Source: a virus
Taxonomy: Duplodnaviria > Caudoviricetes
Length of the DNA stretch: 64,000 bases
Direction: 5' to 3' (one strand)
Virus record (IMG/VR): IMGVR_UViG_3300032285_001531
Part shown: positions 3,512 to 33,560 of the stretch, piece after piece
Layout: the number at the start of each line of letters is the position of its first letter
Position numbering within the stretch: position 1 is the stretch's first letter
Notes under the pieces: generated by a model
What the model was told of the DNA's origin: nothing
The model's database searches: none
The model's input: only the letters and a program-made list of their open reading frames with translations
Program-made: the position numbers and the translations under genes

Positions 3512-4480
3512 ATGGAACACGATTTTTTCAAAAAATACATTGATATCATCAATGAGGCACAAGCTCCGGCGCCAGGCGCAATGCGCCCTACAACAGCACA
3601 AACATTAGCAGCTACTAGAGCGGCTAGTAATGCATCAGCTGGAGGTAACGTTCCACCAAACTCTCCAAAACAGATGCCGTACATGGCGCCGCAAAAGCAA
3701 GTTGGAGAACCGCAAAGAGTAGCACCCACAGCAAGTTTAGGTGGAATGTCACAATCAGCGGACGCAAAAACAGGTGATATTACTACTGCATTTAACGCAG
3801 GTGATGTGGGTGTATCATCAACAAAAACTCCCGGCGGATATGTAAAAGCAAAATCAATGGATTATCAAATGGGTGATGTTGGTGTTGCTCAATCTCAAAA
3901 TGCACCTAATTATGCTCAGGGACAAATTGCTGCACCTACTACAACTACTGCAACAACAGGTAGTGGAGCACAAGGAACAGCCGTAAGTGGTGTTGGCTTT
4001 GGTGGTGCGAGCGGTAGCAATGTTGGTAACAATACAGTTACTTCAGGTGATCAAGAACTAGCTGGTATAGCAAAAGGAATGACCCCTCAGCCAGGTCAAC
4101 AAACTGTGCAAGAAGAAGAAGAACCAGAATCAGTACGAGATTTACTAAAGAAATTACTTGACATCGTAAGAGACCACGAAGGTCCTAAAAAAGATTCTGA
4201 AAAAGAAGTAGACGAAGCTAAAAAAGATGATGGTAAGGATCAAAAGAATACAAGTACTACTAAAGATAATCCTTCTCAGAATCCAACAAAGACTGATATT
4301 CCAAAACGTGAGACACCAAAGAACACTTCTACTGTGATTGGAAAAGAAGATGACAAAGAAGAAGATGAAGAAAAAGTCACAGAAGATGAAAACCTATATC
4401 AGCGTGAGTACCAAGTGGCTGAGGAAAAAATTGAAGAATCTCTCCGTAGTTTATTAAAGGCTATCAAAGAAGGTAAATGA
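3512..4480 (+). CDS. Low-complexity putative virion/head protein
   Basis: ATAAATA motif upstream (3477-3483); Gly/Ala/Thr-rich middle, charged C-terminus. Confidence 0.55.
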   Translation: MEHDFFKKYIDIINEAQAPAPGAMRPTTAQTLAATRAASNASAGGNVPPNSPKQMPYMAPQKQVGEPQRVAPTASLGGMSQSADAKTGDITTAFNAGDVGVSSTKTPGGYVKAKSMDYQMGDVGVAQSQNAPNYAQGQIAAPTTTTATTGSGAQGTAVSGVGFGGASGSNVGNNTVTSGDQELAGIAKGMTPQPGQQTVQEEEEPESVRDLLKKLLDIVRDHEGPKKDSEKEVDEAKKDDGKDQKNTSTTKDNPSQNPTKTDIPKRETPKNTSTVIGKEDDKEEDEEKVTEDENLYQREYQVAEEKIEESLRSLLKAIKEGK

Positions 4481-31393: not shown

Positions 31394-31430
31394 AGATATA
31401 TTTATCTGGCAGGGCATAACCATTAGGTAG

Positions 31431-31449
31431 AAAAAGGTAGCAAGCTACC
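31431..31449 (-). terminator. Intrinsic terminator after pqqA
   Basis: GGTAGC-TT-GCTACC-TTTTT on minus strand. Confidence 0.7.
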
Positions 31450-31477
31450 CTTATCTTAAAACTTATTTTACAATGTA

Positions 31478-31549
31478 TTAGCGATTTGCAATGTACATTG
31501 TGATTTCAAAACCAAAACGCAAATCAGTTGCTTGAGGTATTGTCCACAT
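31478..31549 (-). CDS. pqqA: Coenzyme PQQ precursor peptide PqqA (23 aa, not in ORF track)
   Basis: [23 protein letters not shown] with the E-x-x-x-Y core; AAGGAGA RBS. Confidence 0.92.
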
Positions 31550-31659
31550 GTTATTCTCCTTAAATGAATACATATACTGCATATGTATTTAAGATATAGT
31601 AACACGTAAAAACACCAAGGTATTGCAGATAATCATTGGCTGATACTAATGAAAATCAT

Positions 31660-31845
31660 TAAAATGCTCTGCGACCCTCGGCGGTAATTATAGTACTAAC
31701 AGCTTCGTCTAGCTTTCGCCGCATCAACTGTTAAATACCTTCCACCCGCTCCCCGACAGGGTCCGTTCTCGCATTGCCAGCGCACTTTTCGCCTAAGTGT
31801 AAGGTCCTACGAGGAATTACCTCGCTTCTCATCTTCCGGACCAGA
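31660..31845 (-). ncRNA. Candidate structured ncRNA
   Basis: GC-rich ORF-free island with nested stems (GGTCC/GGACC, CGAGG/CCTCG, CACTT/AAGTG, GACCCT/AGGGTC, TAACAGTT/AGCTGTTA) and a GAAA tetraloop. Confidence 0.5.
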
Positions 31846-31856
31846 ATAGAGTGTGA

Positions 31857-32441
31857 TTAACACTCACGTTCTTTACGAATTCGCCATCTTTCTAATTGAG
31901 CTAGGCGAATTTTTTCTTTTTGTTCAATAGTCATAGGAATTCCTAATTTTCCATTTGGTTTTCCTTTTTTATTTTGACTTATTTTTTGATTTACTATATC
32001 CTGTTTTTCTTTACTAAACGGTTCTTGTTGTTGGCGAGCTAATTTTTTCCTTAATCGCAACTCCTCTGAGTTTTTTCTTCCCCGTAGTTTCTTGGCTCTT
32101 GCTTCTACTACTTCACGATCCTGTTTGAACCCACTGCTACCTTCTCCGCCTTCACTTTTGTTTAATAGTATTCCAGAACTATCAATGATTCTGCCATACC
32201 ATTTAATGAGTCTACGTTCAATCGCAAATGCTCCTATTTCAGTTAATCCGTCAGCTATCAATATAATATTTTTGCCATCAGGCGGCAAAGATATTTTATT
32301 ATGGGTTTCTACAATTCGTCTACCCTTACCTTTCCCTATATAATAAGGAGTTCCTTTTTTTCCGTGTCTTCCGTCTTTAGCTCTTAAATATGCATAAACG
32401 TAGAAATCTTTTGGAGTTTGAATATTGTATTTTTTTCTCAT
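31857..32441 (-). CDS. Free-standing homing endonuclease (GIY-YIG-like with NUMOD3-type tail)
   Basis: FYVYAYLR...PYYIGKG; NKSEGGEG; basic repeats such as KQKISQNKKGK. Confidence 0.75.
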   Translation of the reverse strand: MRKKYNIQTPKDFYVYAYLRAKDGRHGKKGTPYYIGKGKGRRIVETHNKISLPPDGKNIILIADGLTEIGAFAIERRLIKWYGRIIDSSGILLNKSEGGEGSSGFKQDREVVEARAKKLRGRKNSEELRLRKKLARQQQEPFSKEKQDIVNQKISQNKKGKPNGKLGIPMTIEQKEKIRLAQLERWRIRKEREC

Positions 32442-32506
32442 ACATTTATTTATCAAACTCTAATAGAATCCTGCGGGTCAGAGTATCCGTTGACAACGGA
32501 ACGTTC

Positions 32507-32590
32507 TGGTGGAGATTACTGGGATCGAACCAGTCGTGCTATAAGCGGCGGATTTACAGTCCGCTGCATCACCATTGATGCTTCATCTCC
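32507..32590 (-). tRNA. tRNA-Tyr(GTA)
   Basis: Loop CTGTAAA, long variable arm, CCA. Confidence 0.92.
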
Positions 32591-32693: not shown

Positions 32694-32722
32694 ATTATAA
32701 GGAACTATGAGTTGAATGTCAA
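32694..32722 (-). promoter_or_regulatory. Sigma70 promoter for tRNA-Asn/Tyr
   Basis: TTGACA-17-TATAAT. Confidence 0.85.
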
Positions 32723-32999: not shown

Positions 33000-33560
33000 C
33001 TATGATAATAAGATTCTACTGTGCTTAGGAACGCCAGACATTAAGTAATCCATTTGGTCTGCTAAGATATTACGATTCTGTAATATCATATTTTCGAAAT
33101 GATTTGGTTCGTATGGAACATATAACAACTCCATACTGCTTTCTTTTAATGTCATATCATCTTTCTTGCCGTTACATGGTCTACATGCAGTAACTACATT
33201 TGTCCATGCATTCAGTCCACCTCTGCTCTTTGGAACAATGTGATCTCTACTCAAGTTATGATGATTGTGAAAATGATCACCGCAATATGCACAAACATTC
33301 CTATCACGACCGAACAATGTTTTGTTAGTCAGTGCAACTTTGCCATGCTTGCTTATGTCAAATCCATGTCCATTGATTGCGATAATGCTAGGAGTCTCAA
33401 TATAGCTTTGTTGTCCGTTATTTTGAATTCCACCTCTGAACTTAGCAACTATTTCACCTAATGACCAAGCAACCATACCTTTTGCGTGATAAGTGATTGC
33501 AGTTTCATTGGAAATCCATTGTCTAGGAATTCCTGAAATATCTAATGCTAAAACAGACAT
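33000..33560 (-). CDS. HNH endonuclease
   Basis: RDRNVCAYC, DHIVPKSRGG, NVVTACRPCNGKK. Confidence 0.9.
   Translation of the reverse strand: MSVLALDISGIPRQWISNETAITYHAKGMVAWSLGEIVAKFRGGIQNNGQQSYIETPSIIAINGHGFDISKHGKVALTNKTLFGRDRNVCAYCGDHFHNHHNLSRDHIVPKSRGGLNAWTNVVTACRPCNGKKDDMTLKESSMELLYVPYEPNHFENMILQNRNILADQMDYLMSGVPKHSRILLS

Follow-up and report, generated by a model that had tools for sequence, protein, structure and literature searches.

Within a 64,000-nt stretch of virus DNA (the whole of which is called the window here), an island of about 185 nt lies between a probable homing endonuclease gene and pqqA and has a G+C content of 56%, compared with about 33% around it. What this island encodes is the question raised by the locus. 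The initial annotation, made from the letters of the window, flagged 31660-31845 as a structured RNA candidate and offered two readings (i.e., an unannotated phage noncoding RNA [ncRNA] and a cis-regulatory leader for pqqA). The compositional part of that description was borne out, with G+C fractions of 0.54 to 0.56 at 31700-31849 and of 0.29 to 0.36 in the flanks when computed over 100 nt at a time. The island had also been called free of ORFs, which is correct for ORFs of meaningful size but not for short frames, as frames of 22 to 33 codons are present.

On the minus strand, the order of elements is five tRNA genes (Arg, Ala, Pro, Asn, and Tyr; 32989-32507; ARAGORN), a 65-nt spacer, a 194-codon ORF, the island, pqqA, and ORF172. 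The features that define the setting of the island are as follows.

32694-32722, minus strand: match to a sigma-70-like promoter (TTGACA-17-TATAAT, 12/12; consensus scan only) between tRNA-Pro and tRNA-Asn
32507-32590, minus strand: tRNA-Tyr, with a fragment of the RNA directly 3' of it (ARAGORN; Rfam)
31661-31872, minus strand: complete RNA gene, corresponding to positions 1 to 206 of family model R1 (full-length cmsearch match, 172.2 bits, E = 1.9e-53; nhmmer E = 1.3e-45)
31478-31549, minus strand: pqqA, the downstream neighbour, outside the RNA (Pfam PF08042, 1.3e-8)

The R1 score of the window copy is partly circular, as the window contributes a row to the seed alignment; the nhmmer profile is independent of R1 and consists of eight seeds, one of which is again the window copy. 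The 5' end of the RNA gene is at 31872, about 27 nt upstream of the flagged start at 31845, and its first 16 nt (AGAACGUGAGUGUUAA) are the final codons and the stop of the endonuclease ORF. Since the gene starts at 31872 and not at 31845, one more hairpin (P0) belongs to it. A structured RNA is thus located where it had been flagged, but the interval was too short at its 5' side; the continuation of the gene under the end of the endonuclease ORF, and the endonuclease as a probable invader of the same gene, had been overlooked. The perfect sigma-70 consensus sits within the tRNA block of the window, and, judged by its sequence and position, this candidate promoter (32722-32694) could drive tRNA-Asn, tRNA-Tyr, the fragment, the endonuclease gene, and the RNA.

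An uncatalogued RNA family inside phage tRNA arrays

An ORF172 homolog with 91% identity led to an ENA contig (L029) in which the RNA element is uninterrupted and the endonuclease ORF is missing. The tRNA-Asn and tRNA-Tyr genes of this contig are 98% identical to those of the window. Conserved core strings were derived from the comparison of the window with L029, and when IMG/VR was scanned with three of them (20, 19, and 16 nt long), about 65 loci were obtained that the nhmmer profile confirmed. Among them are 48 distinct full-length homologs in IMG/VR phage contigs (170 to 273 nt). The 27 IMG/VR loci reached through the neighbouring ORF172 contained no homolog of the RNA detectable by nhmmer or blastn.

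The family matched no catalogued RNA. At the gathering score, Rfam 15 detected only tRNAs in the whole window, and at E <= 10 the region 31400-32550 had no match to an RNA family, including RNase P, tmRNA, 6S, SRP, group I/II introns, GOLLD, ROOL, YrlA, riboswitches, and small ribozymes. Rfam searches of five further loci (L036, L095, L109, L119, and L040) returned nothing overlapping the family member, and ARAGORN found no tmRNA. A blastn search with the window island and two other members against 50,697 GenBank phages gave zero matches. When bacterial and archaeal genomes were scanned with the 19-nt core, at least 120 stretches were hit; the 80 of these loci that were examined all lie in GC-rich genomes and match by chance, with no R1 hit among them. 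No description of the family was found in a literature search that covered papers but not the individual entries of a 2023 catalogue listing 10,006 candidate structured RNAs from viruses. A covariance-model search of Rfam had been proposed as a check in the initial annotation, and its outcome (i.e., no known family), together with strong conservation and covariation over 48 phage homologs, upholds the description of the element as an unannotated phage ncRNA.

Exactly one copy of the RNA was present in each of five whole IMG/VR records, of which three are rated complete (355, 175, and 172 kb). Genes for tRNAs occur within 2.5 kb of the RNA in 46 of 47 loci, and there are usually 10 to 27 of them. 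In 25 of the 47 loci, the RNA abuts an upstream tRNA on its own strand, the first base of the model being either the last base of that tRNA or the one immediately after it; in 18, a tRNA starts no more than 15 nt past the model end. The RNA gene thus occupies a tRNA slot on the tRNA strand, and the family is an uncatalogued, single-copy one of large uncultured phages, located inside tRNA gene arrays.

The genes beyond the RNA vary; the downstream neighbours are tRNAs, a radical SAM gene (in L029), or an rpoZ-like gene (in L040, L041, and L044). The rpoZ-like ORF (L040:688-1000, L041:7729-8016, and L044; RNA polymerase omega/Rpb6, PF01192, 5e-14) follows an RNA subtype with a large P7-P8 insertion, and the corresponding protein cluster is present in eight loci. 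Clustering of the neighbouring genes across the family loci revealed no conserved or diagnostic protein partner; even the commonest neighbours, which encode a phosphoesterase in 18 loci and an RNaseH-like protein in 10, are not diagnostic.

Covariation and the conserved fold

The single-sequence fold of the island has a minimum free energy of -56.8 kcal/mol, which is no better than that of shuffled sequences (z = -0.47), so that structure predicted from this sequence alone is indistinguishable from chance. The case for more-than-chance structure is therefore a comparative one, made from aligned sequences. In a MAFFT alignment of 47 sequences (A2), from which the nested helices were derived with RNAalifold while P4 and the pseudoknot were added by inspection, 91.8% of the cells hold standard pairs, compared with 74.8% after shuffling and 38 to 52% when the partners were slid. 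Changes on both sides were observed at 29 of 44 pairs, and double-change cells numbered 310, compared with 94.5 expected. We then used the covariance model R1 (206 positions, 39 pairs) to realign 51 matches (A3). Here, 96.7% of the cells are paired, compared with 76.6% after shuffling and about 40% in the slid controls; A3 leans towards R1 by construction, and it agrees with A2. Covariation among homologs had also been proposed as a check, and 31 of 45 pairs are compensatory on this model alignment. In an unsupervised mutual-information scan, all of the top 16 column pairs were predicted base pairs. Frequent G-U pairs (e.g., 229:393, GU in 45 rows of A3) fit an RNA read from the tRNA strand.

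These comparisons support, by heavy covariation, a predicted fold with nine helices, a pseudoknot, and one tertiary pair. It comprises the hairpins P0, Pa, P3, P4, and P5, a pseudoknot made by the Pa loop, a helix P6 that closes a P7-P8 arm, and near-invariant purine-rich junctions. The window copy can form P0, Pa, P3, P4, P5, P6, P7, P8, and the Pa-loop pseudoknot, with the following elements (5' to 3' along the RNA).

31849-31865, minus strand: helix P0, GAGUG-UUAAUCA-CACUC, the loop of which carries the UAA stop of the endonuclease ORF (column map; 5/5 pairs compensatory in the family)
31834-31846, minus strand: hairpin Pa, UUCU/GGAA, with the pentaloop GGUCC as the 5' strand of the pseudoknot (pair 29:42, CG30/GC18/UA2; pair 31:40, CG26/GC15/AU9)
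31825-31833, minus strand: conserved junction GAUGAGAAG (several invariant and near-invariant A2 columns)
31810-31824, minus strand: helix P3, CGAG(G)-UAAUU-(C)CUCG (4/4 pairs compensatory in the family)
31803-31807, minus strand: GGACC, the 3' strand of the pseudoknot, partner of the Pa loop (alternative pairings across the family)
31783-31799, minus strand: helix P4, CACUU-AGGCGAA-AAGUG (pairs 85:172, 144:169, and 145:168 covary)
31770-31782, minus strand: helix P5, CGC-UGGCAAU-GCG (pair 175:194, CG31/UA19)
31758-31763, minus strand: 5' strand of P6, GACCCU (6/6 pairs compensatory; 99.7% of cells paired)
31740-31757, minus strand: near-invariant core strand GUCGGGGAGCGGGUGGAA, with the 5' strands of P7a and P7b plus junctions (A2)
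31692-31739, minus strand: helix P8 and its lineage-specific extension with a GAAA cap (5/6 basal pairs compensatory)
31679-31691, minus strand: near-invariant AUAAUUA followed by CCGCCG, the 3' strand of P7 (A2, A3, and column map)
31673-31678, minus strand: 3' strand of P6, AGGGUC (A3 covariation)

The pseudoknot joins the Pa pentaloop to the strand after P3. Its pairing is ACCC/GGGU in most members, GGUCC/GGACC in the window, L045/49/58, and L128, and ACAC/GUGU in L119. The tertiary pair (182:200; UA42/CG7/UG1), which emerged from the mutual-information scan, links the last base of the P5 loop to an A in the junction AGAACG (31769-31764). The P7 pairs are invariant, and covariation neither supports nor contradicts them. 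The inner part of P8 measures between 2 and about 70 nt in different members, and the arm at its shortest is a 4-nt loop. At the base of its extension, 21 of 46 members have a C/D-like K-turn signature that is missing in the window copy, so that the signature does not define the family. A GNRA-like tetranucleotide is found about halfway along the extension in 25 of the 46 members; the arm of the window copy ends in GAAA.

All of the pairings listed in the initial annotation are found in the sequence, and most of them are family helices. CGAGG/CCUCG is P3, CACUU/AAGUG is P4, and GACCCU/AGGGUC is the long-range helix P6, while UAACAGUU/AGCUGUUA and the GGC-GAAA-GCU cap are located in the lineage-specific extension of P8. 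The pair GGTCC/GGACC, described as enclosing P3, is present (GGUCC, 31842-31838; GGACC, 31807-31803) but is a pseudoknot, GGUCC being the loop of the 4-bp UUCU/GGAA hairpin. We also considered a closing helix between 5' CUCUG and 3' CAGAG, with the endonuclease gene looped out; it was given up because CUCU covaries with GGAG in hairpin Pa and because other members cannot form the pairing with CAGAG.

The endonuclease gene and the duplicated 5' end

Upstream of the complete RNA gene, two elements stand between it and tRNA-Tyr.

32468-32506, minus strand: duplicated 5' fragment of the RNA (P0, Pa, and GAU), 39 nt, upstream of the endonuclease gene (nhmmer, HMM positions 1 to 37, E = 7.8e-5; cmsearch, 22.6 bits; alignment A5)
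31857-32441, minus strand: GIY-YIG-like homing endonuclease gene, 194 aa (ORF with ATG at 32441 and a stop ending at 31857), the last 16 nt of which are the first 16 nt of the RNA gene

The endonuclease has 5,940 relatives at E <= 1e-5, with NUMOD3 in many among the matches listed, and it matches PHROG 314 ("homing endonuclease") at 3.6e-5. Invariant residues in 31 homologs include Y14, Y16, Y33-Y34-I35-G36, R42, E75, and N94. An AlphaFold (AF2) model of the protein (pLDDT, 83.7) had as its best Foldseek matches in the PDB the UvrC GIY-YIG domain (probability, 0.97; E = 0.024, which is weak; TM, 0.50 on the target) and R.Eco29kI. The Pfam GIY-YIG family did not match the window endonuclease, so that the assignment is likely rather than firm. 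Thus, on the basis of weak fold matches, motifs recognized by eye, and NUMOD3 in relatives, the ORF likely encodes a GIY-YIG homing endonuclease.

Among the proteins of the large database searched, the two closest to the endonuclease (78% and 70% identity) are encoded on contigs L126/L127 and L128, respectively. The layout of an RNA 5' fragment, an endonuclease gene, and a complete RNA is found only in the window, L126, L127, and L128, where the end of the ORF overlaps the 5' end of the RNA. No endonuclease homolog is present in any of the other family loci (>45 alleles). In the window, the full copy is preceded by the endonuclease ORF and not by a tRNA, and the abutment to tRNA-Tyr is kept by the 5' fragment only. 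A degenerate remnant of P3 extends this fragment to about 32442, into the start codon of the endonuclease gene. In alignment A5, the three lineages agree in where the junction lies, and the three fragments follow endonuclease-free 5' ends up to ...GAU. The P0 loop of L128 lacks the stop codon, and its ORF goes 15 codons further into the RNA.

The two 5' ends in the window differ in type; the fragment has an ACCC loop, and the full copy belongs to the GGUCC type. The first 90 nt of the full copy are closest to the endonuclease-bearing L128 (79%), and the remainder is closest to the endonuclease-free L036 (93% and 88%). Such a chimeric RNA fits a co-conversion tract of about 90 nt. We read the arrangement, from these alignments, as the product of a GIY-YIG-type endonuclease gene that inserted itself by homing within the 5' part of the RNA gene. 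The cassette would bring its own recoded copy of the first ~60 nt of the RNA, and the last codons and the stop of the endonuclease would be placed in P0, leaving a decaying 5' fragment upstream. With a recoded 5' copy in the cassette and an ORF that ends within P0, an intact RNA gene would be regenerated downstream.

Free-standing GIY-YIG endonucleases of T4-like phages (Seg/Mob, e.g., SegB) offer a comparison, in that a similar small nuclease gene adjoins a conserved, presumed target. The window endonuclease resembles this type in its NUMOD3-type relatives and in the co-conversion footprint in its flank. However, its cassette overlaps the target RNA gene, supplies a recoded 5' replacement, and leaves a duplicated fragment. 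A BLASTP comparison of the window endonuclease with SegB gave no significant similarity (E = 0.89).

Two further observations concern the surroundings of these cassettes. An HNH endonuclease gene (PF14279, 1e-15; window 33000-33560, minus strand) borders the other side of the five-tRNA block; the same HNH gene occupies the same place in L029, so that a distinct endonuclease gene stands on each side of this small tRNA block. Immediately 5' of the RNA fragment, L126 and L128 have in common about 100 nt (L126:2860-2950 and L128:330-425; ...CCGTCCGGACTAGT...GGGTGAATGG...CTACTTGCAAATCC) that are not a tRNA, have no Rfam match, and may be another RNA module.

Known phage RNAs and the possible role of the family

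Small stable RNAs within a phage tRNA cluster have a precedent in T4 species 1 and 2 (rnaC and rnaD), the functions of which are unknown and which are encoded on the tRNA strand. These RNAs mature together with the tRNAs. The resemblance does not extend to sequence; R1 found nothing at E <= 1 in the T4 tRNA region (L028), and the rnaC and rnaD sequences differ from the family. The T4 RNAs are also shorter (119 to 139 nt, compared with 170 to 273 nt), and rnaC has a tRNA-like T arm, which the family RNA lacks. The T4 cluster also contains a GIY-YIG endonuclease gene, segB (annotation of AF158101). ROOL and GOLLD are ornate RNAs of phages and prophages, often near tRNA islands, with pseudoknots and with protein partner and function unknown (PMC12286853). 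The family shares with them the tRNA-island setting, a pseudoknot, and the absence of a known protein partner, but ROOL (about 580 nt) and GOLLD (over 800 nt) are much larger, and the Rfam models of either do not match it. YrlA and other bacterial Y RNA-like RNAs are likewise structured and located among phage tRNA genes; unlike them, the family RNA has no Rfam match, no long 5'/3' terminal stem, and no tRNA-like domain.

The explanation that we consider probable is that the island is an intact gene of about 210 nt for a folded ncRNA of the tRNA-array family, the 5' part of which was invaded by homing, and that its product is a stable, trans-acting RNA. The RNA would be cotranscribed with the tRNAs and could be cut out by tRNA maturation enzymes (i.e., by 3' processing of the upstream tRNA and by RNase P at a downstream tRNA). 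As a stable RNA, it may then exert its effect in trans, the most probable target being some part of the tRNA or translation apparatus. The complexity of the fold suggests a specific biochemical role.

Two readings would tie the element to its immediate neighbours in the window. As a cis-regulatory leader or riboswitch for the downstream gene, it would control pqqA, which lies about 110 nt away on the same strand. Across the 47 loci, however, the downstream neighbour changes (i.e., a tRNA within 15 nt in 18 of them and radical SAM, rpoZ-like, or other genes elsewhere), and only in the window is pqqA directly behind the RNA. It occurs in three other RNA loci, two of which are identical, at distances of about 420 nt (L037 and L039) and 860 nt (L075), where the pqqA-like 23-codon ORFs (L037:2592, L039:2422, and L075:4584) are separated from the RNA by tRNAs. 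Neither a terminator nor an alternative structure sequestering a ribosome-binding site was found. As the downstream genes vary across the loci, we reject the pqqA-leader reading of the initial annotation, which is now very improbable. The position of a GIY-YIG-type ORF directly upstream, with RNA-like sequence on either side, could also suggest the 3' half of a group I intron, or of another endonuclease-carrying self-splicing element, from which the ORF is looped out. More than 45 endonuclease-free homologs are contiguous, flanked by tRNAs, and devoid of exons, the piece upstream of the ORF repeats positions 1 to 39 and is not a complementary half, and the Rfam introns did not match. The endonuclease-free alleles, which hold the whole RNA and no exon, refute the group I intron, and of all the readings this one deserves the least credence.

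The remaining readings accept a free RNA and are more specific guesses than a stable RNA acting in trans in connection with tRNA or translation, which is our best guess and ranks first. A ribozyme that cleaves itself at its own 5' end, freeing the CCA of the upstream tRNA, or that acts on tRNA precursors, seems unlikely to us, despite several features in its favour. The fold is compact, with a pseudoknot and near-invariant purine-rich junctions, and the P8 extension has a GNRA-like tetranucleotide (25/46) and a K-turn signature (21/46). A fold this complex within about 200 nt is characteristic of ribozymes and riboswitch aptamers, and in 25 of 47 loci the first conserved base comes directly after the tRNA CCA, with no spacer. 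On the other hand, the Rfam ribozyme families (RNase P, HDV-like, hatchet, twister, pistol, and hammerhead) did not match at E <= 10, and the 5' consensus AGAACGU is retained in the endonuclease-bearing copies, where no tRNA precedes it. Next below the ribozyme in our ranking, and unlikely as well, is an RNA that assembles with itself or serves as a scaffold, in the manner of ROOL and GOLLD, or that acts as a decoy for a host factor (e.g., a tRNA-targeting defence nuclease). ROOL and GOLLD are phage RNAs often near tRNA islands that form RNA-only cages (PMC12286853), and in L109 a partial GOLLD match follows the family member at a distance of about 650 nt; yet the family RNA, at 170 to 273 nt, is far from the size of ROOL (over 500 nt) or GOLLD (over 800 nt), has no sequence or model similarity to either, and showed no conserved palindromic or kissing motif. 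An isolated module resembling the specificity domain of RNase P, which would dock tRNA elbows, is improbable in our view. T-loop-like loops of the U-N-N-N-A pattern dock tRNA elbows, two hairpin loops of the family fit this pattern (the P3 loop, UGACA in most members, and the P5 loop, UGGCA), and the gene lies among tRNAs. The RNase P families of Rfam are nevertheless unmatched at E <= 10, and the P3 loop of the window copy (GUAAUUC) is off-pattern.

A bolder proposal, which we find doubtful although not far-fetched, is that the RNA belongs to a new class of catalytic or tRNA-binding RNAs that giant phages added to their tRNA operons, for example for maturing, protecting, or deploying phage tRNAs, and that it is important enough to have become a safe, conserved landing site for a dedicated homing lineage carrying a spare 5' end.

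Ever since T4 species 1 and 2, the stable RNAs of phage tRNA clusters have posed an unsolved question of function, and GOLLD and ROOL demonstrate that such RNAs can be structurally extraordinary. The present family is single-copy, widespread in large environmental phages, and very well conserved, with a fold already defined by covariation, and its length of about 200 nt puts it within reach of chemical probing, crystallography, or cryo-EM. Conserved targets are where homing endonucleases persist, and one that appears to rebuild the gene that it splits thus constitutes independent evidence that the RNA gene matters to phages. Homing cassettes that share sequence with a structured RNA gene and themselves encode a portion of the RNA are rare, and this locus probably provides one.

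Other elements were observed in related tRNA arrays. The partial GOLLD match in L109 (930-1050; 46.7 bits) is cut off by the end of the locus and is in the same tRNA array as the family member. A weak YrlA match (L001:2987-3053; 36.5 bits; gathering score, 69) lies between tRNA-Arg and tRNA-Cys. In L029, a tRNA-like element between tRNA-Tyr and the RNA gene (4087-4181) is not called by ARAGORN and scores 30.0 bits with the Rfam tRNA model (gathering score, 29); it has a 37-nt insertion in the anticodon arm. Finally, a different block of about 130 to 170 nt is almost invariant in four related phage contigs that belong to the 27 ORF172 loci (L001:2690-2868, L002:5650-5839, L005, and L006; A1). 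It is situated between tRNA-Met and tRNA-Arg or tRNA-Cys and contains hairpins and a motif composed of AAGAUGAGCAAG and a hairpin. Rfam did not match this block, and we dismissed the idea that it is a permuted relative of the family RNA, as R1 gave no match at E <= 1; it is probably another uncatalogued tRNA-array RNA.
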